The notes: generated by a model from the letters alone, not told the origin. Shown: positions 2,336 to 20,149, numbered from the stretch's first letter. The stretch: 41,424 bases of DNA from Chloroflexota bacterium (GCA_022570885.1 JACZYW010000001.1:1-41424); one strand, 5' to 3'. Numbers and translations: made by a program.

Positions 2336-3400
2336 ATGAGCGAGAAGCTGAACGGACTGCCCCCCATCAAAGTCGTTGGTGTGGGGGGAGGCGGTTGCAA
2401 CGCCGTGAACCGCATGATCGGCGAGGAGATGGAAGGCGTCCAGTTCGTCGGCATCAACACCGACGCGCAGGCGCTGGCCCGCTGCGAGGCGCCGGTGCGT
2501 GTTCGCATCGGCGAGAAGCTGACCAAGGGGCTGGGCGTCGGCGGCGATGCGGAGAAGGGTTTGCGCTCCGCCGAGGAGAGCCGCGATGAGATCCTGGACG
2601 CGGTGCGCGGCGCGGAGATGGTGTTCGTGACCGCCGGCATGGGCGGCGGCACCGGCACTGGCGCCTCGCCGGTGGTGGCGGAGGTCGCGCGCGAGGTGGG
2701 CGCCCTCACTGTCGGCGTCGTTACCAAGCCCTTCAGCTTCGAAGGGGCGAAGCGCCGCGAGCAGGCGGACGAGGGTATCAACCTGCTCCGCCAGCACGTC
2801 GACACCTTGATCATCATCCCCAACGACCGCCTGCTGGACATCAGCGGGCCGGAGGTGACGGTGGAGGAGGCGTTCCGCACGGCCGACGATGTCCTTCGCC
2901 AGGGCATCCAGGGCATCTCAGAGCTGATCACCCTGCCCGGCGAGATCAACCTGGACTTCGCGGACGTACGGCGGATCATGCAGGACGCCGGCCCGGCGCT
3001 GCTCGCCGTTGGGAAGGCGAGCGGCGAGGATCGGGCGGTAGCGGCGGCCCGCGAGGCCATCAGCAGCCCGCTGCTGGATATTAGCATCGAGGGCGCGAAG
3101 GGCGTGCTCTTCAACGTCACCGGCGCTCGCAACCTGTCGCTGCACGAGCTCCACGCGGCGGCCCAGGTGATCGCCGAGGTGGTGGCGCCGGATGCCGAGA
3201 TCATCTTCGGCACGGCGATCGACCCCAGCTTGGGCGATGAGGTGAAGGTGACGGTGATCGCGACCGGCTTCCCCGTGGGGCCGCGGGCGCTCGAAGCAGA
3301 GAAGGCCAGCCTTGGCCAACACTTCGGCGCGGAGCCGCCGGCCCCCGCGACGGATACGGAGCTTCCCGCCTTCCTGCGTCGCACCGTAGAGGTGCGTTAG
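2336..3400 (+). CDS. ftsZ: cell division GTPase FtsZ
   Basis: Contains [15 protein letters not shown] and the tubulin signature [16 protein letters not shown] 2336 is preceded by the SD AGGAAGGAGA. The track ORF opens at GTG 2108, but the extra 76 aa are low-complexity and not FtsZ-like. Confidence 0.94.
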
Positions 3401-3506
3401 CGGAGGTGGTAGCTACACTTGGCAGAAAGGGGGTGTCTGTCTAGCCGTATGTGAGCACCCGGTACGACCGGGAACTCAGCCCCTTCACATCGAAGAGGGG
3501 CAACAA

Positions 3507-3628: not shown

Positions 3629-4684
3629 TTAGCTCTGCTGGCTCAGCCGCCGGCGCCAGTAGCCCAGCCCGATCAGGCCCATCCCTAGGCTGGCCAACGT
3701 AACGACGAAGCTGAAGAGCGAGCCAATGCCACCTGGCAGAGGGAACCCGCCACCCGTTTCCGGCGGCCCCTTCACCGCTGGCCCCGGCGTCGCGGTCGGG
3801 TCTGCCACCGTTGGCTCCGGCGTCGCGGATGGCCCGATCACCGTCGGCAGAATCTCGGACGTGGGCGTCGTTTCAGGAGCTGTCGTGGTAGGTGTCGCCT
3901 CAGTCGGCGTGGCCGTGGGCAGTGGCGGCGTGGCCGTGGGCGGCGTAGCCGTGGGCGGTGGCGGCGTAGCCGTGGGCGGTGGCGGCGTGGCCGTGGGTGG
4001 TGGCGGCGTGGCCGTGGGCGGTGGCGGCGTGGCCGTGGGCGGTGGCGGCGTGGCCGTGGGCGGTGGCGGCGTGGCCGCGGGTGATAGCGGTGTGGCCGCG
4101 GGTGGTGGCGGCGTGGCCGTGGGCGGTGGCGGCGTGGCCGTGGGCGGTGGCGGCGTGGCCGTGGGCGAGACGCCGCACGGAGGGAAGCTTTCCGATCTCT
4201 CCGGGTTCAAGTCCGGCCGCTGGCTGGTGTCGACTTCAACTCGAATGGAGTTGGCGTCCGGACTGACGCCGGCGCTGCTGAGCGGGCCGTATAAGAGGAC
4301 GACGCTTTCCCCAGGATCCAGGGTGACATTGACTGCAACGGAGGCGCCGGTCGTAAGGAAGAAGGGGCTGCCTCCGAGGGCGGGTGGGATGTGCTGCGCG
4401 AGTACCAGCGGTATCTGGTCCGATACCTGATCCTGCGTCCGGTTCGCCACGGTGATGGTGCCGCTTACACTCCCGTCGGGCGCACAGGTGGCTGTGATCG
4501 ACACGATCTCCACTGGCCCGAAGGGTTGCCCCGCGGTGGATGAGCTTCTCATCAGAGCGACGCCGATGGTGACGAAGGTTGCCAGACACAGGAGCGCCGT
4601 GAGCAGGCCTAAGAGCACGGTGAGCGGGAAAGACCCTGCCGGTGAAGCTTTCCGCCGTTGTCGGTAATGTATCGACCCAGACAT
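3629..4684 (-). CDS. membrane/cell-surface protein with TATPPPP tandem repeats and a sortase-signal-like C-terminus
   Basis: 351 aa. N-terminal TM/signal-anchor FPLTVLLGLLTALLCLATFVTIGVAL, a globular part, then about 11 TATPPPP heptads. The C-terminus reads GPPETGGG + hydrophobic segment (IGSLFSFVVTLASLGMGLIGLGYW) + RRRL. SD GGGGGA lies upstream of the ATG. Confidence 0.7.
   Translation of the reverse strand: MSGSIHYRQRRKASPAGSFPLTVLLGLLTALLCLATFVTIGVALMRSSSTAGQPFGPVEIVSITATCAPDGSVSGTITVANRTQDQVSDQIPLVLAQHIPPALGGSPFFLTTGASVAVNVTLDPGESVVLLYGPLSSAGVSPDANSIRVEVDTSQRPDLNPERSESFPPCGVSPTATPPPPTATPPPPTATPPPPAATPLSPAATPPPPTATPPPPTATPPPPTATPPPPTATPPPPTATPPPPTATPPTATPPLPTATPTEATPTTTAPETTPTSEILPTVIGPSATPEPTVADPTATPGPAVKGPPETGGGFPLPGGIGSLFSFVVTLASLGMGLIGLGYWRRRLSQQS
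3906..4166. repeat. 21-bp in-frame tandem repeat (about 12 copies) encoding TATPPPP
   Basis: The unit GCCGTGGGCGGTGGCGGCGTG is reiterated with few substitutions. It lies inside CDS 3629-4684 and generates spurious ORFs in several frames. Confidence 0.9.
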
Positions 4685-4929: not shown

Positions 4930-6213
4930 CTACTCGACGAGCACCACATCCGGGGCTTCGAAAGTGCGGAACTCTCCATACGTGAGGTCGAGGGGCGAGT
5001 TGCCGGATAGTTGAAAGCCGTTCACGATGAGCTGCACCGTGCCGAATTGAGAGTCGCCACTGATGTCTAACGTGGCCCCCGGCGCGTAGAAGATGCCGCT
5101 GATCAGATCGTTGCTCCCACGCATCTTAAAGTCAGCGGTGATCGCTTCGTCCTGCCAGAGGGTGATGCCTTCATAGGGGCCGGAGGTGGGCGGAGACAAG
5201 TCCATAGCGCCGGAACCCGTCAGGTCGAACGGCTTGGGCGCGCCATCTCCCGTGGGATTGGTCGGATTTTCCGTGACGTAGATCATGACTCCGTCGCCAA
5301 CAAAGCTCGCACCGCCTGCCTTGGAGAAGCCACCGCCGGCCATGATATAGATGCCGGGCTGGAGCGTGATGGTACAGGTGCAGTTGGAGTAGAAGCCGCC
5401 GTAGTACGTGCCGGGATACAGCGTGAAGTCTCCGCCGCTAGTGACGGTCCACGTATCGGGGTTCACGGCGGTACCGGAGGATCCCGGCGCTGGCGACCCC
5501 AGCGAGGGCGGTGACAGGCTCGCCAGCGGGTCGCTGACCGTCCAAGACACACTATTCGGCTCCGGGCTGATAGTGCCCGAACCGCCGACGTCGTATCCGC
5601 CGTACACGTCAATACTGCCTTCCACGATGAGGTCGCCGGCGCCGGTCTTGCTCAGAGCGTCGGATGGGCAGCTAGAGTTGACCATGACGCCGCCCCCGGC
5701 GATCGTCAGGCTGGCATTCCCTTGCTGTCTGAAAGATTGGCAATCGTCCGGGTCCAGCACAACCAGAGCATACGGTTCTGGGAAGAGGGGGAAGCCGGCC
5801 ACCCCGCGTGCCTGCACCGTCGAGCCGCCTGGTATCAAGACATGGATGAAGAACGTCGGCGGTTGCTCGGAGACGATCACCTCCACGTAGAGTGGATCGC
5901 CAACATGCGCGCCTGAAGTGGGTGGGATGTTGACCGTAACCGTGCTGGAGCCGCCGCTGTTGTCGAAGCCGTTCTCGTCTGCGTATGCCAGCGCCGTGGT
6001 GGTGGCATCGGCAACGCTGCGGCCGTTGAACAGCTCGTAGGTTGCGGCGAGCGCCGCCTCGTCGGCAGCGTTCTGCGCCTGGCGATGCTCCGCGTAGAGA
6101 TAACCGACGTCGATGACAAGTCCAGTGAAGGCGAGGAGGGCGACGATCACGAATGCCGAGAGCACAAGTATCTGCCCTCGTTCGTCCCGTAGCGTTCGTA
6201 GATTGCGCTTCAT
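4930..6213 (-). CDS. TadG-like pseudopilin / Flp-pilus-assembly TadE/G-like N-terminal domain protein
   Basis: 427 aa. The N-terminus RDERGQILVLSAFVIVALLAFTGLVIDVGYLYAEHRQAQNAADEAALAA is typical of the TadG-like N-terminal domain. The remainder is G/S/T-rich and beta-rich. SD GAGGAG precedes the ATG. Confidence 0.72.
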   Translation of the reverse strand: MKRNLRTLRDERGQILVLSAFVIVALLAFTGLVIDVGYLYAEHRQAQNAADEAALAATYELFNGRSVADATTTALAYADENGFDNSGGSSTVTVNIPPTSGAHVGDPLYVEVIVSEQPPTFFIHVLIPGGSTVQARGVAGFPLFPEPYALVVLDPDDCQSFRQQGNASLTIAGGGVMVNSSCPSDALSKTGAGDLIVEGSIDVYGGYDVGGSGTISPEPNSVSWTVSDPLASLSPPSLGSPAPGSSGTAVNPDTWTVTSGGDFTLYPGTYYGGFYSNCTCTITLQPGIYIMAGGGFSKAGGASFVGDGVMIYVTENPTNPTGDGAPKPFDLTGSGAMDLSPPTSGPYEGITLWQDEAITADFKMRGSNDLISGIFYAPGATLDISGDSQFGTVQLIVNGFQLSGNSPLDLTYGEFRTFEAPDVVLVE

Positions 6214-6232
6214 GGAGGCGACTCCTCGTGTG

Positions 6233-6682
6233 CTAATTAGCGATCGCCATGGTCGACGAGCTGGACATGTCGAACTCGAGTATCCCGAACATGTTGAAGA
6301 TAGGCGTGTACGTGTATTGAGAGGACACCGTGACTCGGTTGCCCTTCTCGTTGGTGCCGTCGATCCAGGTGGTTTCCACCGTCAACTGCAAAGTGTTCAG
6401 TGAGCCGGCATGGTTCTCAACCACCTGGGAAACCTGCGTATCGCTGTTCGGGGACGTGTAATAGCTGCTGCCCGGCCCGCTGGGATCCGAGGAGTCGGCG
6501 CCGTGGACGATCGCGTAGCGAGTGCCCTCTCGCGTCGCCTCGGCCAGCGCGTTGTAGTGCCAGACGGCGCGGCCGATGTCGATCATGCCGAAGACCAGCA
6601 TGAAGAAGATAAGCGAGATCAGTGCGAACTCCGTCAACGCTTGGCCGCCCTCGCCCCGTTTGGCAACGCGGAACCGCCTCAT
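6233..6682 (-). CDS. TadE-like pseudopilin
   Basis: GQALTEFALISLIFFMLVFGMIDIGR matches the prepilin-like G/xxxxEF motif plus hydrophobic helix. The start is taken at the internal ATG 6682, which overlaps the upstream stop as ATGA. The track ORF extends to 6742. Confidence 0.72.
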   Translation of the reverse strand: MRRFRVAKRGEGGQALTEFALISLIFFMLVFGMIDIGRAVWHYNALAEATREGTRYAIVHGADSSDPSGPGSSYYTSPNSDTQVSQVVENHAGSLNTLQLTVETTWIDGTNEKGNRVTVSSQYTYTPIFNMFGILEFDMSSSSTMAIAN

Positions 6683-7143
6683 TCCCTGACCCTCGCTGTC
6701 ACCGTACGGGCGACATCTATCGATTCTGGTATGCCCGGCCAAGGGAAGAGCATGTTGAAGGTGTAGGTCACGGTCACATCAACGCGGCGATGGTCCGGGC
6801 CGAACCACCCATCGGTGGTCACGGAAACGGCTGGGTTGGTCGGTGAAAGGTTGAGCAGGTCACTGGTGTCTGCGACGACAGCGTTCCTGATGCCGTCCTC
6901 GTCGCAAGAGACGGCGCAGTTACGGGCTGCGTAGTCCGCGCCGGTGCGGGCGCTGTTTGTCACCGATACGTATGCGAAGTAGACTCGCCCGAAGTCGATG
7001 GCGCCCAGGACCAGGAGTATGAGTACGGGCAACATCAGCCCGAACTCCACCAGGCTCTGGCCGCGCTTATCGCCGATAAGCCGTCGCAGCGATCTCCGGT
7101 GCCGCTTGCCCTGGGCTGCCTGCGATGATTCCTGCATGCTCAT
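6679..7143 (-). CDS. TadE-like pseudopilin
   Basis: 154 aa. GQSLVEFGLMLPVLILLVLGAIDFGRVYFAY matches the TadE N-terminal motif. SD GGAGGG is 5 nt upstream of the ATG. Confidence 0.72.
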   Translation of the reverse strand: MSMQESSQAAQGKRHRRSLRRLIGDKRGQSLVEFGLMLPVLILLVLGAIDFGRVYFAYVSVTNSARTGADYAARNCAVSCDEDGIRNAVVADTSDLLNLSPTNPAVSVTTDGWFGPDHRRVDVTVTYTFNMLFPWPGIPESIDVARTVTARVRE

Positions 7144-7209: not shown

Positions 7210-7303
7210 AGAGGTCCGGCAGCCCGGCTGTCCTCTTCCCGTATAGGTGGTGGACCCGTGGCTTTGCGTCCCCGGCTCTCGCCGGGTTTGCCCTGTTCGG
7301 AGT
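7210..7303 (-). promoter_or_regulatory. c-di-GMP-I (GEMM) riboswitch aptamer in the 5' leader of the tadE-like operon
   Basis: The minus strand reads CUCCGAACAGGGCAAACC-CGGC-GAGA-GCCG-GGGACGCAAAGCC-ACGGGUCC...GGACAGCCGGGCUGCCGGA. The blocks ACAGGGCAAACC and GGGACGCAAAGCC are identical to my recollection of the Vibrio Vc2 aptamer. There is a 4-bp helix with a GNRA loop, and the second helix has an AG bulge. The aptamer ends 70 nt before ATG 7143. Confidence 0.85.
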
Positions 7304-11996: not shown

Positions 11997-12272
11997 CTAG
12001 CGCAGCGACGGGGGTTGCCAGTGCCAACTGGGGGGCGAAGAGGGAGCGCCGTTGGCGCCTCCGCGGAGCCATCGCCGCGTCCGCTCGCGGAAGGGGGGCG
12101 ACGGCGCGACCGATAGGGGAAGGCTTGGGATCAGTCGAGCTACCTCTAACAGCGCCTCGAGCTCTGCTCGGTGAGCTGGGTAGCGCTCAAGGCAGGCCTG
12201 CACCTCGGTCTCGCCCTGCCGCAGCGCCTCCAGGCACTCGGCCAGCGCCCTGACGATCTCCTCCTCAGCCAT
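11997..12272 (-). CDS. short anti-sigma-factor-like protein (possibly truncated)
   Basis: Start at ATG 12272 overlaps the sigma gene stop by 8 nt. MAEEEIVRALAECLEALRQGETEVQACLERYPAHRAELEALLEVARL resembles the N-terminal helix pair found downstream of ECF sigmas. There is no TM or extracytoplasmic domain, and the tail is P/S-rich. Confidence 0.5.
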   Translation of the reverse strand: MAEEEIVRALAECLEALRQGETEVQACLERYPAHRAELEALLEVARLIPSLPLSVAPSPPFRERTRRWLRGGANGAPSSPPSWHWQPPSLR

Positions 12273-12852
12273 TGGCCGCCAACTCCGTCGCACCTTCGGC
12301 TTTCAGCTGCTTGCGCAGCGCGTTCAGCGCTCGGTGCTGGATGACGCGCACCGCCGCCACGCTCTTCCCAAGGATCTCCGCCACCTCGCGATACTCCAGG
12401 TCTTCCACAAAGCGCAGGATAATCACCTTGCGGTGCTCGTCTCGCAGCTTCAGGATCGCGTCGTGCACGCGTTCGCTGTTCAACCGCTGATCAAGAGCCG
12501 CCTCCGGATTTTGCAGGCGGCTGTGGTCTATCAGCGTCTCCGGAAGCTCCGCGTTCTGTTTTCGGGAGCGCAGGTAGCTCACGCCCAGGTTGTGGGCAAT
12601 GCGAAGCAGCCAGGAGACGAAGGGCGCGGCCCGCGGCTGATATCGAGGGATGGCTTGCCAAGCCTGGAGGAAGGCCTGCGCCGTGAGATCTTCCGCCTCG
12701 GCTGGGTTCCCTACCATATAGTAGATGTGACGATACACTCGCACCACATGCCGATCGTAGAGCGCGCCGAATGCCGCTTGGTCACGGGCGATAGCCCGCA
12801 GCACCAGGGTGCGCTCGTCTACTTCTTCCTGCGGGGCAATGGACTTGAGCAT
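12265..12852 (-). CDS. ECF-type RNA polymerase sigma-70 family factor
   Basis: Region 2 (YRHIYYMVGNPAEAEDLTAQAFLQAW) and region 4 HTH (YREVAEILGKSVAAVRVIQHRALNALR). Start chosen at ATG 12852; the track ORF opens at 12930. Confidence 0.9.
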   Translation of the reverse strand: MLKSIAPQEEVDERTLVLRAIARDQAAFGALYDRHVVRVYRHIYYMVGNPAEAEDLTAQAFLQAWQAIPRYQPRAAPFVSWLLRIAHNLGVSYLRSRKQNAELPETLIDHSRLQNPEAALDQRLNSERVHDAILKLRDEHRKVIILRFVEDLEYREVAEILGKSVAAVRVIQHRALNALRKQLKAEGATELAANG

Positions 12853-12871
12853 TGTCCTACTCGATCTTCGA

Positions 12872-12897
12872 AACGGGATGGCCCGGCAAACGTTACC
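12872..12897 (-). promoter_or_regulatory. candidate ECF-type (autoregulatory) promoter
   Basis: The minus strand reads GGTAAC-N16-CGTTT, ending about 20 nt upstream of the sigma ATG. This matches the generic ECF pattern G(G/T)AAC-N16/17-CGT. Confidence 0.3.
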
Positions 12898-12985
12898 GGC
12901 CTCGCTCAGGAGACTGCCTAAGCTGTGCAAAAGCCTTCTATATCGTTAGGATCGGCAGATTCGGAGGCGAACGAGAGGGGTGTCC

Positions 12986-15175
12986 TTATGCCGCGGGCTC
13001 TGCTGCCTCAGCCGGCTTAGAGCCGCCGTCTCCCTGATCGTCGCTCTCTGCCGGAGCTTCGTCCGACGGTTGCTCGTAGGAGTCACGGAGAATGTTGGGG
13101 ATCTGCTCCTGGTCCGAGCCTTCTGCTGCAGCCACCGTCTCCGTAGCGTCCAACTCGAACAGAAACGTCCAGGAGCCGACCGTGAACGTCTCGCCGGAAT
13201 CCAGGATCAGCCAGCTACCGGGCATCGACCCGCTGGTGCTCAACCGTTGCAGCTCGTGCACCATGAGCTTTCCATCTCGGACCCAGACTCTCGCCCACTC
13301 CGGAACGATCTCCTCGTCTCCATCTTTCTCGGGAAGCTTGATGAGACAGCGATAGCCGGAGCCGATGCTGGCGGCCGCGTCGCTCACCGGGAACGCCTGG
13401 CCCTGGAGCGAGCCGCTGGTGACCATCAGGCGGCCCAGCGGCTTGTTGGTGAGGACCGGCGTCGCCGGCGGCGGTTCGTCGCCCCAAAGCGGCCGAGGCG
13501 TAGGATTCTTGTTCCATCCGCCTGTGACGATGGGCCCGGGCGACGGGCCTTGTGGCGCATCCGGGTCGGGCTCTCCCTCGTCGCTGCGCCGCCGCCGCAG
13601 CAGGTAGCGCACGAAGAGCGCCCCGCCCACGCCCGCGACCACGATCAGCCCGGCCGCGATGAGAAGGCTTAGGCTCATCGTCTCGCCTTCGCTCGTGCGC
13701 ACCGTTACCGCGGCCGTGGCTGTTAAGCCGGCGTCGGTGACAACCTCAACTTGGAGCGTGTGCTCTCCACCCGCTGAGGAGGCTGGGTCGAAGCTGAACT
13801 CGTAAGGTGGCTCGGTGAGCTCTAGCACGGACTCGCCGTCCACCAGGAAGGTGACGCTGCTGATGGGATCGAGCGATTCGATCTCGGCGGTCACGGTGCG
13901 CGTTTCAGTGAGCTGCTCGTCGGAGGTCACGCCGCTTAATGTGACCGACGGTGCGGCTGGCGGGCCGGTGCGCACCAGCACCGCCGTTGACGTTGCCGTC
14001 CGCCCGGTGGTGGTGGCCACCGTTACCTGGAGCGAGTGCTCGCCGTCGCTGACGAGCGCCGGGTCGAACGTGAACTGGTAGGGCGGCTCAGTGAGCTGTA
14101 GCACCGCTTCGCCGTTCACTAGGAAGGTGACGCTGCTGATGGGATCGGCCGAGACGATCTGGGCGATCACGATGCGCGCGCCCTCTAGCCGCTCGCCTGG
14201 CTCCACCGCGCTCAGCGTCACGATCGGCCCCCGGGGCTCGAACGTGCGCTCGCCACTGCCCGTCAGCTCGCCTGTGGTCACGTCCACGCGGAGGGTGACC
14301 GCCTGCGATTCGTCCAGGGTGATCCCGGTCGTGTCTAGCGTGAGGATGTACTGGCCTCGCAGCAGCTCAGCCGCTTCCGCATAGAGCTGGGCCAGCCCCT
14401 GCGGCGATGGTGTCTCTGCGAACCGGCCGCCGCTTCCCTGGGCCAGCTCCTGAAGGTACGCGCGGTCGATGCCAGTACCGAGCCCGATGGCGAACACCGG
14501 CACGCCCAGCGTCTGAGCTGTCGTGAGGGCGTCGGCGCGCGAGAGCAGACTGCCGTCGTCGACGCCGTCGGTCAACAGCACCACCGTCAGGCGGCTGTTG
14601 CCGGAGTCGGCCGCCAGCCGGACGCTCGCGACCGTCGCGTCGTATAGCGCTGTATTGCCGCTCGCGACGAGGCCATCGATCGCAGCGCCTGCCGCTGCTC
14701 TGTCCGTCGTGAACGCCAAGAGCGGCGCCACAGTATCGGCGAAGGCGACGATAGCGACGGTGTCCTGTGGCCCAAGGTCGTCCAGGAAGCGATGGGCGGC
14801 TGTCTTCGCCTGGGTCAAGGCGCCACCGGCCATGCTGCCGCTTACGTCCAGCGCCAGCACGACGGCGATGCCCAAGCTGCTGTCTACGCCGCGGGTGACC
14901 GCGCTTACCGGCACGGCGGCGCCGTTGAGGTTGGCCTGGAACTGCTCAGCCGTTAGGTCGGCCAGCGGGCGGCCGTCGCTCGCCAGCACCGTCACCACCG
15001 CTTGCGCCTGCGAAGATTCGTCTGTGGTGAAGCTGGCCACCTCTACCGTCAGCGTCTCTTCCTGCGCGAGCCCGGCTACCGGCGAAAGCAACAGCGTCGC
15101 TAAGGCCAGGAGCAGCCATATCAGGTGGCTCCAGCGCAGACGTGACTTCAGTTCACGCTGCCGTCGATGTAACAC
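12986..15175 (-). CDS. secreted vWA domain - 2x Ig-like repeat - TM - cytoplasmic FHA domain protein
   Basis: 729 aa, GTG start with SD GGAGGG. Signal peptide LIWLLLALATLLLSPVAGLAQE. vWA MIDAS motif LALDVSGSM. Two roughly 90-aa paralogous repeats (...DPISSVTFLV(N/D)GE(A/S)VL(Q/E)LTEPPY(Q/E)F(T/S)FDP...). TM LLIAAGLIVVAGVGGALFV + RYLLRRRR. FHA-like C-terminus (LGRLMV..G...G..F.....SIGSG..C.I.L....VS..HA-like pattern). Confidence 0.85.
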   Translation of the reverse strand: MLHRRQRELKSRLRWSHLIWLLLALATLLLSPVAGLAQEETLTVEVASFTTDESSQAQAVVTVLASDGRPLADLTAEQFQANLNGAAVPVSAVTRGVDSSLGIAVVLALDVSGSMAGGALTQAKTAAHRFLDDLGPQDTVAIVAFADTVAPLLAFTTDRAAAGAAIDGLVASGNTALYDATVASVRLAADSGNSRLTVVLLTDGVDDGSLLSRADALTTAQTLGVPVFAIGLGTGIDRAYLQELAQGSGGRFAETPSPQGLAQLYAEAAELLRGQYILTLDTTGITLDESQAVTLRVDVTTGELTGSGERTFEPRGPIVTLSAVEPGERLEGARIVIAQIVSADPISSVTFLVNGEAVLQLTEPPYQFTFDPALVSDGEHSLQVTVATTTGRTATSTAVLVRTGPPAAPSVTLSGVTSDEQLTETRTVTAEIESLDPISSVTFLVDGESVLELTEPPYEFSFDPASSAGGEHTLQVEVVTDAGLTATAAVTVRTSEGETMSLSLLIAAGLIVVAGVGGALFVRYLLRRRRSDEGEPDPDAPQGPSPGPIVTGGWNKNPTPRPLWGDEPPPATPVLTNKPLGRLMVTSGSLQGQAFPVSDAAASIGSGYRCLIKLPEKDGDEEIVPEWARVWVRDGKLMVHELQRLSTSGSMPGSWLILDSGETFTVGSWTFLFELDATETVAAAEGSDQEQIPNILRDSYEQPSDEAPAESDDQGDGGSKPAEAAEPAA

Positions 15176-15219: not shown

Positions 15220-15248
15220 TTGACATATCGTGGAAGCTGTGACACAAT
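15220..15248 (+). promoter_or_regulatory. candidate sigma-70 promoter far upstream of ORF 15705
   Basis: TTGACA (15220-15225), 17 nt, CACAAT (15243-15248). It would give a roughly 450-nt leader. Confidence 0.35.
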
Positions 15249-15562
15249 ACGGCGCGATCAGCATGGCGCAGTACGATCCGTTCGCGGCTCGCTTTCGGAT
15301 CAGATACTCAAGTGTAGTATCGGACGGACGAGCGTACTGTTCAGGGCAAGGACGTCCCAGCGGAAGGATCGCTGTCGGGCAGCAGGAGGCGGGCCTGGGA
15401 GCGTAGGGGTGCTCCTTGTAGGAATCCCCACCTTAACTAAGCGATCTACAGCTGTTCCCTTCGGGGGGAGTTGAGATCGGGCTACGGGCCCAGGGGACGC
15501 GCGTTCAGGAGGCGGGGCCTGATTAGCGTCCCCTGGTTCCCACCCATGACAACAGAAGAGTG

Positions 15563-15684
15563 CCTCCGATAAAGGCGCGGCGCGGGAAACCGCGTTTGGC
15601 CGAAAGGCCCCCGGCGATTCGTCCGGGCGCAAAGCTTCGGGTCTACTCCCCGCGAGGGGAACGACAGCCGAGCTGCCGAAGAGG
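15563..15684 (+). promoter_or_regulatory. divergent GEMM (c-di-GMP-I)-like riboswitch candidate
   Basis: The 3' half CGCAAAGCUUCGGGUC-...-GACAGCCGAGCUGCCGAAG matches the 7210-7303 element (ACGCAAAGCCACGGGUCC-...-GGACAGCCGGGCUGCCGGA), including the AG bulge and compensatory helix changes. Both share the 5' CUCCGA. The first helix is replaced by three hairpins, two with GAAA loops. CCGAA (15676-80) can alternatively pair with UUCGG (15690-94), which overlaps the SD GGAGG. Confidence 0.5.
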
Positions 15685-15704
15685 AACCGTTCGGAGGATC
15701 TTCG

Positions 15705-16040
15705 ATGAAGCGGACATTAGCACGAGCCAGCTGCGCCGGTCTCCTGGCTGTTCTTCTCTCCACAGGCACTGGACTTGTCATCCTCGGGTTCGCGTTCGTC
15801 CCCACGAGCGAGACCACCAGCGTCTCCCTGGCGGCGACAGCGACTCCCACCTACGTCTCTGAGTTAGCGCCGGCTGTGGTGGTGCAGCCGCGCCAGGCCG
15901 CTGCCCTGCCCGATTCCGGCGCCGGCCCGAACCTCGGCGCGGCCAACCCGCTGCCCCGGGCGGCCGGCTTTGCGCTCTTGCTGCTGGGCGGCCTGCTGAT
16001 ACGTACTGGCCTCGCCTGGCGCTCCAGCACGAACCGCTAG
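15705..16040 (+). CDS. small secreted protein with an LPxTG-like (LPDSG) C-terminal signal
   Basis: 111 aa. SD GGAGG is 7 nt upstream. Signal peptide LARASCAGLLAVLLSTGTGLVILGFA. The C-terminus is LPDSGAG...FALLLLGGLLI + RTGLAWRSSTNR. Confidence 0.6.
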   Translation: MKRTLARASCAGLLAVLLSTGTGLVILGFAFVPTSETTSVSLAATATPTYVSELAPAVVVQPRQAAALPDSGAGPNLGAANPLPRAAGFALLLLGGLLIRTGLAWRSSTNR

Positions 16041-16118
16041 CGTCACACGTTTTCAGCCACCTCGACTCTTTGCCGATACTCCCCATGAAGCCGCCGTAAG
16101 GCGGCGCGGGAGGTCTGC

Positions 16119-16562
16119 GTGTCCAATCCCATCAGCCGTCTGGTCGAGCGTCGCTCGCTCCAGGCCGATGTCCGCCGAGCTCTCATGTCTGGCGTTGGCC
16201 TCTATCACACCACCTGGCCCTTCGAGAATAGCGCGGCAGCCGAGGCGAGCGAGGAGCTCACCGCGCAGCTAGTCGGCTGGTGCAGGGAGGTGCTGGGCGA
16301 AACGCGCCGGCCGTATGGGTTGGATTACGTGACGCTGGCGGTGGGGCTGCTCCGCGAAGGGGAGGGCCAGGTAGCGAGCGTCAACTTCGGCGTGCTCCGC
16401 CCCAGCGATTTCTACAACCAAAGCTTCGTGGAGGAGCAGGTACGGGAGACGCTGTGCTCCTGGTCTCGCTTTCCCACCATCGCCGGCGAGAGCGCCGGCA
16501 GCCTGTCCGTGGTGCTCTTTAGTTGGGGCGACCTGACCCGAGAGCTGCTCTTGGCGAGCTAA
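16119..16562 (+). CDS. hypothetical protein
   Basis: 147 aa, GTG start with SD GGGAGG. It ends 12 nt before the AAA+ gene. No recognisable motif. Confidence 0.55.
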   Translation: MSNPISRLVERRSLQADVRRALMSGVGLYHTTWPFENSAAAEASEELTAQLVGWCREVLGETRRPYGLDYVTLAVGLLREGEGQVASVNFGVLRPSDFYNQSFVEEQVRETLCSWSRFPTIAGESAGSLSVVLFSWGDLTRELLLAS

Positions 16563-16574
16563 GGAGGTTACACC

Positions 16575-17936
16575 ATGACCACAGAGACGACGCCCTCTAT
16601 CACGCGAGACGAGCCCGCTGAGCCCGACACCCCCACCGGCGCCTTCGTGCCCCAGCCGAGGAGCATCGAGGAGACGGGGCTGGAGCTCTCGCTCCTGGTT
16701 GACCTGGCGCTGAAGTCCATCCACTTCAGCGGCCGGCCTACCGGACGCCAGTTGGGCGAGCATCTCGCCTTGGCCTTCCCGGTGATCGAGGAGATCGTCG
16801 CGTTTCTCCGCCAAGAGCAGGCCATCGAGGTCGTCGGCAGTTCAGGCATTGGAGAGCAGGCGTATCAGTATGCACTATCGAAGCGGGGCACGGAGAAGGC
16901 GGAGGAGGCCTTGGGGCGCAATCAGTACGTCGGGCCGGCGCCGGTCCCCCTCTCGCTCTATACCGATGTCTTGCAGCACCAGTCCGTGCGCGATGTCCAC
17001 ATCGACCGTCAAACGTTCCTCGATGGGGTCTCGCACCTAGTCTTGAGTCGAAACGTGCTGGCTGCGTTGGGCCCGGCGGCTAACACCGGCCGCTCTGTGC
17101 TCATTTACGGCAACTCCGGCAACGGCAAGAGCAGCCTCGCCCTCGCTATCGCCGGCATGATGCCAGGCGCAGTGCTGATCCCGTACGCGGTAGAGGTGCA
17201 TGGGCAGATCATCAAGGTGTTCGATCCGCGCATGCACGAACCGGCGAAGCCGCAGGTGGCGGAGGAACGCCGGCAGACCGCCGCCTCGCCACCTGCTGGG
17301 CGGGAACGCCGCCAGGACCGGCGCTGGGTGGTGGCGAAGCGCCCGATGATTCGGGTGGGCGGCGAGCTGACGCTCCAGGATTTGGAGCTGCGGTATTCGG
17401 AGCTTTCCAAGTTCTACATCGCGCCGTTGCAGTGGAAGGCGAACAGCGGTGTGCTCATCATCGATGACTTTGGCCGGCAGCTGGTGCAGCCGAGAGAGCT
17501 GCTCAACCGCTGGATCGTGCCGATGGAGCAGGGGGTGGATCGCCTCTCGCTCCACACCGGCGATACGTTGGACTTGCCCTTCGAGGTCTTGCTCATCTTC
17601 TCGACGAACATCCCGCCGGCGAAGCTGGGCGACGAGGCGTTCTTCCGTCGCATCCGGCACAAGGTAGAGGTCCCCAACCCTACCCGAGAGGAGTATCTGG
17701 CGATCCTGGTTCGGGTCTGCGAGGAGCAGGGCGTTGCGCACACGGAGGAAGGCGCGCGTTACCTGGTTGAGGCCTACTATGATCAGACTGACCGTGAATT
17801 CAAGGGCTGCCATCCCCGAGACCTGGTGGAGCTCCTGATCGATATCACCAACTTCTACGGCGAGGAGCCGGAGCTGACGCCGGAGTGGATCGACCTGGCC
17901 TGCTCCTCCTACTTCGTCGAGGCTGAGGCTGCCTAG
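16575..17936 (+). CDS. AAA+ ATPase with an N-terminal winged-helix-like domain
   Basis: 453 aa with strong SD AAGGAGG. Walker A is LIYGNSGNGKSS and Walker B is VLIIDDFG. NRWIVPMEQGVDRLSLHTGDTLDLPFEVLLIFSTN...DEAFFRRI follows an AAA_5/MoxR-like layout. Confidence 0.85.
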   Translation: MTTETTPSITRDEPAEPDTPTGAFVPQPRSIEETGLELSLLVDLALKSIHFSGRPTGRQLGEHLALAFPVIEEIVAFLRQEQAIEVVGSSGIGEQAYQYALSKRGTEKAEEALGRNQYVGPAPVPLSLYTDVLQHQSVRDVHIDRQTFLDGVSHLVLSRNVLAALGPAANTGRSVLIYGNSGNGKSSLALAIAGMMPGAVLIPYAVEVHGQIIKVFDPRMHEPAKPQVAEERRQTAASPPAGRERRQDRRWVVAKRPMIRVGGELTLQDLELRYSELSKFYIAPLQWKANSGVLIIDDFGRQLVQPRELLNRWIVPMEQGVDRLSLHTGDTLDLPFEVLLIFSTNIPPAKLGDEAFFRRIRHKVEVPNPTREEYLAILVRVCEEQGVAHTEEGARYLVEAYYDQTDREFKGCHPRDLVELLIDITNFYGEEPELTPEWIDLACSSYFVEAEAA

Positions 17937-17960: not shown

Positions 17961-18050
17961 AGAGGCTCCCGGCCGTTCGGCCGGGAGCCTCTCTCTTCGC
18001 TGCGGTGCTACTCCGCCTCTACGGCGGCCCGACGAAGACCATGGTGAAGT
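17961..18050. repeat. 90-bp perfect direct repeat, left copy (contains terminator hairpin)
   Basis: Identical to 19054-19143. Includes a 14-bp stem AGAGGCTCCCGGCC-GTTC-GGCCGGGAGCCTCT (17961-17992) and a copy of the last 32 nt of the CAP gene. Confidence 0.97.
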
Positions 18051-18083
18051 TATCCCTTCGATAGCGCCCCGTTTACGTTTGAG

Positions 18084-18779
18084 GTGAGAGTGGCGGCGTA
18101 TGGTACACTTGTTCTCAAAGCGAGCGAAGGTGCTAGTGTGGATGCGGCACCCATCATAGGCATAACCGGAATCGCGCTGACCGTGCTAGCCATGGGGTTA
18201 GGCTATAGCAAGCTGGAACTTAGTCACCCCTGGCTAGTCACTATGACACTCCTTGAACTTGGAGTATTGGTTGCGAGCGTTGTGCTAATGGGACCTCTAA
18301 TCGGCTCACTCATCGCTTTCTCTGTGGTCAGTGGGTTGATCCTCATCACCTCGATAAGGCTGGCGGTCCAGTACGACGAAGTGGCCACAGACGCGGCAAT
18401 CCATTGGCGGATGGATCGAGACAAGAGCAAAAATTTCATGAGAAGCCTGGTTCGATCCGAAGGCAAGCATTTTCAAGTTCTCGGGCTCTTGGGATCCGCA
18501 CGGCTGGCTGCTGCGCTGGCTAAATGCGCTCGGAGCCCTGAGGAAATCACGCTGATGGCGAAGCCCATAGCAATGCTCGGGGCGGTCTTTCACGAAAATC
18601 CGGTAGCTCTTGCACCTCGATTCGACCGGCTGATGAGGCGTTTTGGAGAGCCTCCGGAACGAGCCATGCATATGGCCGATGTCTTGACTAGAGCATCCCA
18701 GCTCACGCCGGGCTCGTTCGAGGAAGTGATGAAAGGCCTAGAGGCATTCGTCGGCACGAGCGATGAGCCTACTGAATAG
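18084..18779 (+). CDS. hypothetical membrane protein (3 predicted TM helices + helical C-terminal domain)
   Basis: 231 aa. TM segments are IIGITGIALTVLAMGLG, LVTMTLLELGVLVASVVLMG and LIGSLIAFSVVSGLILITSI. Codon usage is less GC-biased than in neighbouring genes. Confidence 0.55.
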   Translation: MRVAAYGTLVLKASEGASVDAAPIIGITGIALTVLAMGLGYSKLELSHPWLVTMTLLELGVLVASVVLMGPLIGSLIAFSVVSGLILITSIRLAVQYDEVATDAAIHWRMDRDKSKNFMRSLVRSEGKHFQVLGLLGSARLAAALAKCARSPEEITLMAKPIAMLGAVFHENPVALAPRFDRLMRRFGEPPERAMHMADVLTRASQLTPGSFEEVMKGLEAFVGTSDEPTE

Positions 18780-19053
18780 TTAGGGTCACCGGGGAGCGTC
18801 GTCCCCGACGACTTCGAGACCATCACTGAAGCAGTGGGCTTCCCGGTAGGGGGTAGTAAGGTCCTCTACGAAGCTGGGCTGATTCTCCTACGGTTGGCGC
18901 TATCGTCTACCAGGCCTCGCTACCCAGTAGATGCGCGCCGGGCAAAACTGGCCGCCAACCCTGGTCCGACTTCAGCCCGTACACTTCCTCGCCCGTGCCG
19001 CACAAACCGGCGGTCGCGGAGCCACAAGTAGAATACGCGGAGGACGATACGAG

Positions 19054-19143
19054 AGAGGCTCCCGGCCGTTCGGCCGGGAGCCTCTCTCTTCGCTGCGGTG
19101 CTACTCCGCCTCTACGGCGGCCCGACGAAGACCATGGTGAAGT
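19054..19143. repeat. 90-bp perfect direct repeat, right copy (terminator + authentic 3' end of the CAP gene)
   Basis: Identical to 17961-18050. It overlaps the CDS stop at 19112. Confidence 0.97.
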
Positions 19144-19981
19144 ACTTCATGTTCCCATCGGCGGCGAACCCGACGCCTAGCTGCGTAAACTCGACGTGGA
19201 GGATGTTCGCCCGGTGGCCGGGGCTGTTCATCAGGTCGCGGATGGCCACGGCCACGCTCTCGCTGTCGGGATAGTTGTTCCGCGCCAGGTTCTCCCCGGC
19301 CCAGCCGTAGCCCACGTTGTTCTCGTTCATGAGCGAGAAGGCGGTGTCACCGTGTGGGCTCTCATGCGCGAAGTAGTCTTTCGCTGCCATATCCTCAGAG
19401 CGGAGATTGGCGACGAACACCACGCATGAGTTGAGGCCCAGCGCTGACATCCCGTTGTCAGCCCTCGCGCTGTTGATGGCGTCGAAGAGCGCCTGCGCGA
19501 AGCTTCCCATGGCGGCCGTGGGACAGCTTGGGGGCTGGGGCGTAGGAACAGCCGTCGGCGGCACCGCCGTGGGTGGTACTGCGGTCGGCGCTAGCGCTAG
19601 CGGCACGGCGGTTGGCGCTAGCGGTACTGCGGTTGGCGCTGGCGATACTGCGTTCGGATCTCCCAACGCTGGCGTAGGTGTCAGAAGCGAAAGCGGCGTT
19701 CCTATCGGCGTTGGCGAGGCTGCGCGCGTCGCCGTGGGGATGATAGTGGCCGTAGGATCGTCCGCGATGGTGCTGCTGCCGTCCGCTGGCTCGACCGCTG
19801 TGAGCTCGTCGGCGGCGCTGGAAGCGGGCGCCCCGTCCCAATCCACTGCGAGAAGGAACGTTGCAGAGAAGGCGAAGAGGCTGAGCCCGCCGATGATCAA
19901 CGCCGCTCGTAGCAGCGCGACGCGCGTATTGCCCGTCAGCCAGCGAAGGCGCCCAAAGCGGCGGGGTGGAATGTTGTCCAT
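19112..19981 (-). CDS. membrane-anchored CAP/SCP (PR-1/YkwD-like) domain protein
   Basis: Start at ATG 19981 (SD GGAG); the track ORF opens at 20128. TM ALLRAALIIGGLSLFAFSATFLL. Pro/Thr/Ala linker with PTAVP repeats. C-terminal SCP-like ...DMAAKDYFAHESPHG...GWAGENLA...LMNSPGHRANIL.... Confidence 0.82.
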   Translation of the reverse strand: MDNIPPRRFGRLRWLTGNTRVALLRAALIIGGLSLFAFSATFLLAVDWDGAPASSAADELTAVEPADGSSTIADDPTATIIPTATRAASPTPIGTPLSLLTPTPALGDPNAVSPAPTAVPLAPTAVPLALAPTAVPPTAVPPTAVPTPQPPSCPTAAMGSFAQALFDAINSARADNGMSALGLNSCVVFVANLRSEDMAAKDYFAHESPHGDTAFSLMNENNVGYGWAGENLARNNYPDSESVAVAIRDLMNSPGHRANILHVEFTQLGVGFAADGNMKYFTMVFVGPP

Positions 19982-20119: not shown

Positions 20120-20149
20120 TTGACACACCTCGCAGATTCCAGATAGACT
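20120..20149 (+). promoter_or_regulatory. candidate promoter of the rpsL operon
   Basis: TTGACA (20120-20125), 18 nt, TAGACT (20144-20149), about 175 nt upstream of rpsL. Confidence 0.4.

Follow-up and report, generated by a model that had tools for sequence, protein, structure and literature searches.

An unnamed AAA+ ATPase and a small companion protein encoded behind a c-di-GMP riboswitch and a candidate surface-protein gene in a Chloroflexota bacterium

When three genes follow a cyclic di-GMP (c-di-GMP) riboswitch on one strand, do they form a single operon under its control, and what might an ATPase of no named family be doing among them? These questions are raised by a stretch of 41,424 nucleotides (nt) from a Chloroflexota bacterium (GCA_022570885.1 JACZYW010000001.1:1-41424), hereafter the window. 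A first-pass annotation had proposed there an uncharacterised operon encoding a small protein with an LPDSG tail, a protein of 147 residues and an AAA+ ATPase with a winged helix-turn-helix (wHTH), all behind a leader resembling a GEMM riboswitch. The three open reading frames (ORFs) stand on the plus strand exactly where that annotation had placed them (table 1). Their GC content at third codon positions (GC3), 0.79-0.84, is typical of coding sequence in the window, the overall GC of which is 64.7%.

We conclude that the three-gene finding is real and that no characterised system accounts for it. The explanation that we favour, tentatively and at slightly less than even confidence, is that two transcription units are stacked within an adhesion and pilus neighbourhood conserved in a Dehalococcoidia lineage, the last two genes forming a pair that takes part in a Tad pilus and adhesion programme.

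The ATPase, its companion and their neighbours

What kind of ATPase is this? The Walker A (GNSGNGKS) and Walker B (LIIDDFG) motifs reported earlier are both found in the 453-residue protein. Across a diverse alignment of the family, residues G179, G182, G184, K185, D297, D298, R358 and R359 are invariant, while N345 never varies in the close clade and rarely does in the family as a whole. The conserved Walker motifs, N345 and R358/R359, together with an AlphaFold2 model and its fold matches, place the protein in the AAA+ superfamily, with one insert before Walker B and another before sensor 1. The model (predicted local distance difference test, pLDDT, 79; predicted TM-score, pTM, 0.78) has a helical N-terminal domain, a β-rich insert between Walker A and Walker B, and a β-hairpin before the sensor-1 strand. 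Its best Foldseek match is 8p49 (E 2.5e-11), followed by LonB, MCM, ComM, BchI/ChlI, LuxO, FleQ and PspF. The enzyme is predicted to be catalytically intact, and it is probably ring-forming.

The family is large. A search for homologues gave at least 7,972 matches, the best 120 of which are 59-95% identical to the window protein, and an exhaustive search of representatives gave 681 clusters at 50% identity (E<=1e-30, near-full-length alignment). The names carried by these homologues are solely 'ATP-binding protein' or 'predicted ATPase with chaperone activity'. In Pfam, NCBIfam and PADLOC the window ATPase finds only sub-threshold matches to its P-loop and lid. When the N-terminal domains are scanned alone, all of their matches are to winged-helix families and all lie below threshold, so that the earlier reading of some 110 N-terminal residues as a winged helix has sub-threshold support. 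We regard the label wHTH-AAA+ as reasonable, and the label MoxR as not. FHA, HDOD or PAS domains are fused to the N terminus of some distant members, and such fusions suggest a regulated activity.

The gene that precedes the ATPase encodes a cytoplasmic protein with 148 homologues, every named one of which is a hypothetical protein from Chloroflexota or Dehalococcoidia. Sixteen residues are invariant, and the C-terminal FSWGDLTRELLLAG is conserved. The AlphaFold2 model is of an α/β fold (pLDDT 79). A fold search with it returned weak palm/RRM-like matches, none at E<=0.001, and a profile search of the PDB returned noise; for neither the 147-residue protein nor the ATPase did sequence or profile searches find a close PDB relative. 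A remote kinship of the 147-residue protein to DUF6812 was considered and ruled out (hhalign probability 0.1%). The earlier statement that the two proteins cannot be placed in a named system therefore holds: no curated Pfam or NCBIfam cut-off is reached, there is no full-length PADLOC match, and a check of the HHpred/Foldseek type on both AlphaFold models identified no characterised family.

Do the two genes belong together? With the 147-residue protein as query we fetched 70 metagenomic loci. Here and below, relatives are loci from metagenomes or metagenome-assembled genomes and are phylogenetically clustered, and counts of loci are not counts of independent events. In 52 of these loci the ATPase gene lies 3' of the 147-residue gene on the same strand, as in the window; the two are a syntenic pair of uncharacterised genes, as the first-pass annotation had supposed. 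The spacer between them, confirmed at 12 nt in the window with a strong Shine-Dalgarno (SD) sequence, AAGGAGG, at 16561-16567, has a median of about 93 nt and reaches 316-568 nt in one subclade (L006, L105, L106, L110, L113-L115, L117, L119, L120, L127, L131 and L132), within whose long spacers the regular expression for the riboswitch core found nothing. The pairing clearly fails in L123, in L150 (a partial copy) and in a distant group with 29-36% identity (L146-L149 and L151). From these sequences, conservation of the pairing is very probable. Of the two outcomes that would have told against the earlier annotation, a loss of synteny in relatives or a place in an already known family or system, neither was observed.

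The ATPase extends much further than its companion. From more than 600 genome-scan matches we kept 80 ATPase loci, which come from Dehalococcoidia, Anaerolineae, Chloroflexia, Thermomicrobiales, Myxococcota, Armatimonadota, Gemmatimonadota and Nitrospirota. A search of six-frame ORFs with a hidden Markov model found no remote homologue of the 147-residue protein beside the distant ATPases. Judged by these distributions, the ATPase is much the older of the two, and the 147-residue protein was added to it in one lineage.

What surrounds the ATPase in its relatives? In the close and sister clades (ATPases 60-71% identical) its gene is divergent from a set comprising the vWA-Big_7-transmembrane (TM) protein, an extracytoplasmic function (ECF) sigma factor, Flp, RcpC, TadZ, TadA, TadB and TadC. 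Between none and three Flp copies were called in the divergent operon; gene calls in the fetched loci come from a crude heuristic of ORF and GC3 that may miss small genes. The ATPase is divergent from the Tad operon in L001/L003 and L154-L158, and from the vWA-sigma end in L153, and this arrangement persists where the genes downstream of the ATPase differ. In a further seven loci, of which Chloroflexia supplies at least three, the ATPase adjoins a T2SSE/CpaF gene, which begins 11-16 nt downstream of it in L014, L020 and L028. The CpaF proteins of the seven loci share 55-59% identity with TadA from two of the Dehalococcoidia Tad operons described above. A DUF6812 gene stands beside the ATPase in five of the seven (L014, L028, L047, L071 and L074, but not L020 or L026). 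These loci lie in and around Chloroflexia, with Roseiflexus, Herpetosiphonaceae and Oscillochloris among those named.

The wider distribution of the family weighs against a Tad role. Near most of the distant loci there is no Tad gene, and the neighbours in Anaerolineae, Myxococcota and Thermomicrobiales look like housekeeping or envelope genes; the Tad link therefore comes from roughly two or three independent lineages. None of the three window proteins matches a Tad family in Pfam (T2SSE, T2SSF, CpaE/TadZ, RcpC, Flp, TadE/G). To our knowledge, and in the literature that we searched, Tad systems are not known to have an AAA+ accessory factor; a literature search on Q8U0N8 (the protein of 8p49), DUF6812 and Tad in Chloroflexota found no functional information. 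Taken by itself, a functional link between the ATPase and Tad is possible but doubtful.

Might the ATPase instead be a housekeeping enzyme with no functional tie to its neighbours, the synteny reflecting shared descent in a few lineages? A family so large and so well conserved would fit this explanation, and genes resembling GDPD, GH3, RecJ, BCAT and pyruvate kinase do lie beside it in Anaerolineae and Myxococcota, while in the close clade the locus adjoins the ribosomal str/S10 operon. Shared descent sits less well with an adjacency to the Tad operon that holds while the downstream genes change, or with the tight and independent pairing with CpaF in Chloroflexia. Nor would a housekeeping gene be expected to share a specialised promoter type with a secreted CAP-domain protein and, in two relatives, with Tad genes (see below), and the sensor-domain fusions suggest a regulated rather than a constitutive role. 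We consider the housekeeping explanation possible but less likely than not.

The riboswitch and the surface protein

Is the first gene under c-di-GMP control? The leader that had been called GEMM-like is a c-di-GMP-I aptamer, scoring 49.1 bits against RF01051 with a gathering score of 35, and it probably extends 5' to the CCUC at 15563. Rfam matches to the riboswitch occur in 8 of 20 related loci. Its core motif was counted by regular expression with a shuffle control; a covariance model was dropped, variable inserted hairpins having broken the MAFFT alignment. The core motif is present in 17 related loci, always on the same strand and upstream of surface-protein genes, with no match in shuffles, and it is absent by the same expression from L005 and from the distant ATPase loci L007-L082. 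The riboswitch ahead of surface-protein genes is confined to one Dehalococcoidia clade. Within it, the riboswitch is in tandem in five loci (L107, L116, L117, L118 and L144) and triple in L150. These multiple aptamers precede large genes for LPXTG-like surface proteins, most aptamers being followed by a GC-rich hairpin of their own, and several having extra hairpins inserted in their 5' half.

How would the switch act? In the relatives the aptamer is followed by the conserved segment UUCGGAGGAUCUUC and then by a GC-rich hairpin, with a U-tract in several, an arrangement that points to a transcriptional platform. The window has no such hairpin. There the ATG comes at once, and UUCGGAGGAUCUUC includes the SD sequence GGAGGA at 15694-15699. 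The minimum free energy fold pairs the 5' flank of the aptamer (15563-15569) with 15692-15698, that is, with the SD. Since the hairpin-type platform has been lost in the window, the switch probably acts on the first gene's own SD.

The product of that gene does have the LPDSG tail attributed to it. It has 12 close homologues and a conserved TYVSEL motif, and homologues with 43-71% identity occupy the equivalent position in relatives. More generally, the gene preceding the 147-residue gene encodes a tail in which [L/V]Px[T/S/A]G precedes a hydrophobic helix and a basic end in 45 of the 60 loci with upstream room. The motif lies 8-16 residues from the TM helix and varies (the canonical LPSTG, LPRTG and LPATG; also LPRAG and LPASG; LPDSG in the window). 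Proteins of this set range from about 110 to more than 800 residues, the window protein of 111 residues being the smallest, a minimal form; many have Thr/Pro-rich stalks and some have vWA and SdrD-B-like domains.

By its pattern, the 111-residue protein's tail is a candidate LPXTG-like sorting signal. Against this assignment, the curated anchor models are silent: neither Pfam Gram_pos_anchor nor any NCBIfam anchor model matches the tail, and the pattern is what the assignment is made from. Neither this protein nor the 147-residue protein has a match in Pfam, NCBIfam or PADLOC, and there is no sortase among the window ORFs submitted to Pfam. That a c-di-GMP riboswitch governs a surface protein here is nonetheless a reading in which we have good confidence.

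Other parts of the window bear on the same subjects. A second riboswitch, of the c-di-GMP-I-GGC type, lies at 7214-7301 on the minus strand (RF03167, 75.9 bits against a cut-off of 59). We considered whether a paralogous operon followed it, and ruled this out, the genes being two TadE-like and one TadG-like pseudopilin genes (4930-7143, minus strand). Because the riboswitch directly precedes them, the Tad minor pilins also appear to be under c-di-GMP control. Adjoining the TadE/G genes, a gene at 3629-4684 (minus strand) encodes a secreted protein of 351 residues with a long stalk of (T/A)TPPPP-type repeats, PPETGGG, a TM helix and an RRR end, a further candidate for an anchored surface protein.

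Upstream of the first riboswitch lies a conserved non-coding element of about 290 nt, preceded by a sigma-70-like promoter of the form TTGACA-N17-CA(C/G)AAT. The TTGAC is found 215-283 nt upstream of the element's conserved hairpin in those relatives with enough upstream sequence. The hairpin (dG -37.5 kcal/mol, z -2.75) has a conserved loop, CAGGAGGCGGGGCCTGG, and the element carries invariant blocks. It is present in 18 loci (the window, L003-L005, L084, L085, L087, L088, L093, L103, L109, L142 and L153-L158) and is kept in sister clades that have neither riboswitch, small protein nor 147-residue gene. It has no Rfam match, and RNAalifold recovers from it the terminal hairpin alone. The element could be a small RNA gene or a long leader.

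The 78-nucleotide spacer and the downstream flank

If the first gene is governed by the riboswitch, what reads the two genes behind it? The spacers ahead of the 147-residue gene have almost nothing in common save TGCCGATA(A/C)T, which about 60 of 71 loci carry 35-112 nt ahead of the start, where the background would give 0.044 per 430 nt. The octamer GCCGATA(A/C/T) is nearly invariant in this position. Many loci have a -35-like CTGAAC, CTTAAG or CTTTAG 14-16 nt upstream of it, and in many CTGAAC or CTGAAG stands 15 nt ahead of GCCGATA; the two-block pattern is found in 27 of 70 loci, as against about 0.002 per locus in shuffles. The window's element matches the sigma-28 consensus GCCGATAA at seven of eight positions. 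Given a conserved promoter element between the first gene and the 147-residue gene, the pair probably has an internal promoter of its own, a claim that we make with modest confidence.

The motif also occurs where the 147-residue gene does not. In two sister-clade loci (L157, L158) it lies directly upstream of the ATPase gene, with degenerate copies in L005 and L156; the exact GCCGATA is found ahead of none of 75 ATPases that lack the 147-residue gene, the degenerate sister-clade copies having been found by the two-block search. Sites of this type occur elsewhere too: in L003 at 3414-3420 (minus strand), between flp and rcpC, with TAAAG-N14-GCCGATAC; in L154 at 3067-3073 (minus strand), upstream of an flp pilin gene; and in L153, where a second copy at 5071-5077 (plus strand) is directly ahead of the ATPase gene.

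Several points tell against a separate promoter. Ahead of the 147-residue gene the window has TTTCAG, which fits a -35 element poorly, while many relatives, and the CAP gene of the window, have a good one. The adjacent sigma factor, the sole one in view, is of the ECF type and not FliA; its protein scores 105.8 bits against TIGR02937 (cut-off 42.9) and best against the BldN family, below the equivalog cut-off. This BldN-like factor was considered as the reader of GCCGATA and ruled out. No terminator-like site lies between the first gene and the 147-residue gene, which leaves room for co-transcription. The hairpin described earlier in this gap, which lacks a U-tract, is present as stated. Single-sequence folds give stems that pair with the SD in most short-spacer relatives, akin to that of the window, yet RNAalifold finds no consensus for the 5' untranslated region of the 147-residue gene, so that an SD-occluding stem is without alignment support. 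A transcript starting near 16087 would drop the anti-SD CUCCC and place the GUAA hairpin at its 5' end.

Could all three genes nevertheless be transcribed from the leader as one operon under the riboswitch, as first proposed? They share a strand with gaps of 78 and 12 nt, their order is conserved in the close clade, and the hairpin platforms of relatives, some with U-tracts, could gate a whole transcript. In the window, however, the platform is at the first gene's SD and would have no direct hold on the genes downstream, and the promoter-like element in the spacer would offer those genes a start of their own; in many relatives, moreover, the spacers are 170-570 nt long. The parts also come apart. 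The sister clades and L003 have the ATPase without the 147-residue gene, L003 keeping the riboswitch and the small protein, whereas from L005 and L155-L158 the riboswitch is missing as well; neither riboswitch nor surface-protein genes accompany the ATPase in the sister clades or at any distant locus. We therefore part from the single-operon proposal, which we judge to be unlikely.

Where might the second unit end? The hairpin downstream of the ATPase gene (table 1), as stable as which none of 200 shuffles folds, is likely to be the 3' end of the ATPase unit. Beyond it lies the convergent gene for a secreted CAP-domain protein, preceded by CTTAAG-N15-GCCGATAT at 20066-20038 (minus strand). In many relatives the CAP gene keeps this place just 3' of the ATPase gene, and in most of those examined it follows directly; sites like the window's precede it in L003, L109, L154 and L155. 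In the window it probably begins with the ATG at 19981 and not with the GTG at 20128. Between the hairpin and the CAP gene, 18000-18800 has a low GC of 0.54-0.56, as against 0.61-0.70 across the cluster, and contains an ORF of 231 residues (18084-18779, plus strand; GC3 0.59) with no family match, possibly a recent insertion or a non-gene.

Table 1. Positions and strands of the features discussed, counted from the first letter of the window.
Feature	Position	Strand	Details
Divergent unit: vWA protein 12986-15175, ECF sigma 12265-12930, 98-residue ORF 11997-12293	11997-15175	-	Relatives continue to Tad genes
Sigma-70-like promoter	15220-15248	+	TTGACA-17-CACAAT (with TG); TTGAC in relatives
Conserved non-coding element, about 290 nt	15255-15545	+	Ends in hairpin CCAGGGGACGC-N25-GCGTCCCCTGG (15490-15536)
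c-di-GMP-I riboswitch	15563-15704	+	Aptamer RF01051 at 15596-15680 plus switching segment UUCGGAGGAUCUUC
111-residue small secreted/membrane protein	15705-16040	+	Hydrophobic N-terminal signal, TYVSEL, LPDSG, spacer, TM helix, basic tail
Sigma-28-type -10 element GCCGATAC	16072-16079	+	Predicted transcription start near 16087
Anti-SD, inner hairpin and SD	16079-16113	+	CUCCC 16079-16083; GCCGCC-GUAA-GGCGGC 16090-16105; GGGAGG 16108-16113; single-sequence folds
147-residue cytoplasmic protein	16119-16562	+	GTG start; RPYGLDY, LRPxDFY, C-terminal FSWGDLTRELLLAG
453-residue wHTH-like and AAA+ ATPase	16575-17936	+	Walker A 179-186, Walker B 294-300, sensor-1 N345, R358/R359
14-bp perfect GC-rich hairpin, then UCUCUUC	17961-17992	+	dG -38.4 kcal/mol, z -3.9
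Convergent secreted CAP-domain protein	19112-19981	-	Pfam CAP 57.9 bits

The two-unit explanation that we favour can be put as follows. In the first unit, a c-di-GMP-I riboswitch would govern a secreted protein with an LPXTG-like C-terminal anchor, reduced in the window to 111 residues where its relatives are long and Thr/Pro-stalked; the hairpin-type platform of the ancestor, which several relatives keep as a terminator, would have been lost, leaving the switch on the gene's SD. In the second, a promoter of the sigma-28/WhiG type in the spacer would transcribe the 147-residue gene and the ATPase gene, stopping at the strong hairpin, with the convergent CAP gene served by a promoter of matching type. 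The 147-residue protein would be a lineage-specific partner that joined the ATPase unit as its first gene. The pair would serve the Tad/Flp pilus and the adhesion programme as a regulator or assembly factor driven by ATP, and c-di-GMP would reach it at most indirectly, by read-through from the first unit. We also offer, as a speculation that we judge unlikely, a wider version: that the wHTH-AAA+ family is an unrecognised Tad/Flp accessory ATPase of monoderm Chloroflexota, paired with TadA/CpaF (and with DUF6812 in Chloroflexia or the 147-residue protein in this Dehalococcoidia clade), whose sigma-28/WhiG-type regulon, along with the c-di-GMP riboswitches of adhesins and minor pilins, would bring about a change to a surface-attached state. 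The C-terminal tail FSWGDLTRELLLAG could then dock the 147-residue protein to the ATPase ring.

Named AAA+ systems and known relatives

Does the ATPase work as a MoxR-type chaperone with the vWA protein encoded upstream? The vWA gene does start 530 nt upstream of the first gene, as reported, and the 'MoxR/AAA_5-like core' of the first-pass annotation is correct as to the AAA+ superclade, within which the fold matches lie; as to the family it is not. When 43 diverse members were compared with Pfam, weak and scattered matches fell to AAA_16, Mg_chelatase, AAA_5, AAA, Sigma54_activat and bpMoxR. AAA_5 matched weakly in 18 members and bpMoxR weakly in 10, the reported stretches covering the P-loop region only, and AAA_3 (MoxR) matched in none of the 43. 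The window ATPase has no AAA_3, AAA_5 or bpMoxR match in Pfam, no MoxR-family structure is among the 50 fold matches listed, and no vWA gene neighbours the distant members of the family.

The vWA protein itself runs from a signal peptide through vWA and Big_7 domains to a TM helix at about 497-525. Because its vWA domain lies between signal peptide and TM helix, inspection of the sequence predicts it to be outside the cell; and since its gene, besides, belongs to the opposite unit, where it heads the divergent ECF-sigma/Tad operon, the protein, on the predicted topology, cannot be a MoxR-style partner. The partnership is largely refuted and very improbable. The cytoplasmic tail of the vWA protein looks FHA-like by eye and has no Pfam match. 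In all close relatives the ECF sigma and vWA genes stand at the head of the Tad operon; in the window, the ORF of 98 residues that overlaps the sigma gene has a weak anti-sigma match.

An anti-phage defence or mobile-element cassette, built from a STAND or AAA+ NTPase and a small partner, is more improbable still: the weak nSTAND1 and IetA-like matches that would suggest it are below cut-off or confined to P-loop and lid (the PADLOC defence models give short P-loop/lid matches to IetA, mad8 and MkoB only), the composition of the cluster is normal, and its chromosomal place between the Tad operon and the ribosomal operon is fixed across clades.

What, then, does the locus contribute? The ATPase family has thousands of members in at least five phyla and has no name, family model or known function. 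The locus gives the first usable leads on it: a conserved partner, a specialised promoter type and two independent links, both genomic, to the Tad pilus motor. If true, the Tad link would add a component to the poorly studied biology of the monoderm Tad/Flp pilus, and a regulon of the sigma-28 type would serve adhesion instead of flagella. The riboswitch control of candidate anchored adhesins would be extended to Dehalococcoidia, tandem and triple aptamers included, with an apparent change of expression platform from the hairpin type to an SD-adjacent type.

How does the ATPase compare with known structures? Its closest match, 8p49, is the hexameric Q8U0N8 of Pyrococcus furiosus, described by its authors as uncharacterised and without a Pfam domain (bioRxiv 10.1101/2023.06.09.544317). 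Like the window protein, 8p49 carries its AAA+ core behind a flexible N-terminal domain and lacks a Pfam assignment, and it forms a hexameric ring; unlike it, 8p49 is archaeal, with an identity of just 17-20%, a low TM-score (0.31-0.44) and a function equally obscure. The model resembles MCM, ComM, Mg-chelatase BchI/ChlI, the NtrC-type activators (LuxO, FleQ, PspF) and MoxR in what appear to be β-rich inserts before Walker B and before sensor 1, and it keeps the Walker A, Walker B, sensor-1 Asn and paired Arg of such AAA+ proteins with helix-2 and pre-sensor-1 inserts, yet no model of these families matched above cut-off. It differs from the NtrC-type activators, which have a C-terminal helix-turn-helix, in that a sensor or wHTH comes first and the AAA+ core after it; the GAFTGA loop that contacts sigma-54 was not seen when the sequence was read by eye.

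The promoter element may be set beside sigma-28 (FliA/SigD/WhiG) promoters, TCTAAAG-N14-GCCGATAA, such as that of P. aeruginosa fliC with its TCTAAAG 14 nt upstream (PMC12784957). The -10 octamer is alike, and so in many loci is the -35-like block 14-16 nt upstream; unlike the usual sigma-28 targets, the target genes here are not flagellar, and the neighbouring sigma factor is of the ECF type. As for Tad systems, in Dehalococcoidia the ATPase has complete Tad operons beside it, and in Chloroflexia it forms a tight pair with CpaF/TadA; unlike the known Tad components, the ATPase and the 147-residue protein match no Tad family, the link being one of neighbourhood.

In C. difficile, c-di-GMP riboswitches control type IV pili, and the second riboswitch of the window would likewise govern pilus subunits. 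The first has its counterparts in the Bc2 riboswitch of B. thuringiensis, which sits upstream of the collagen adhesin Cap/CbpA (PMC4933901, PMC7423583), and in CD2831 and CD3246 of C. difficile, which are c-di-GMP-controlled sortase substrates (PMC6200980). These differ from the window in phylum (here Chloroflexota/Dehalococcoidia) and in anchor, the [L/V]Px[T/S/A]G tail with its spacer of 8-16 residues to the TM helix not being recognised by curated anchor models, and the window protein has just 111 residues. They share with it a c-di-GMP riboswitch in the leader of a gene whose secreted product ends in an LPXTG-like motif followed by a TM helix and basic residues, and in some Chloroflexota relatives the likeness to adhesin systems extends to vWA and SdrD-B-like domains.

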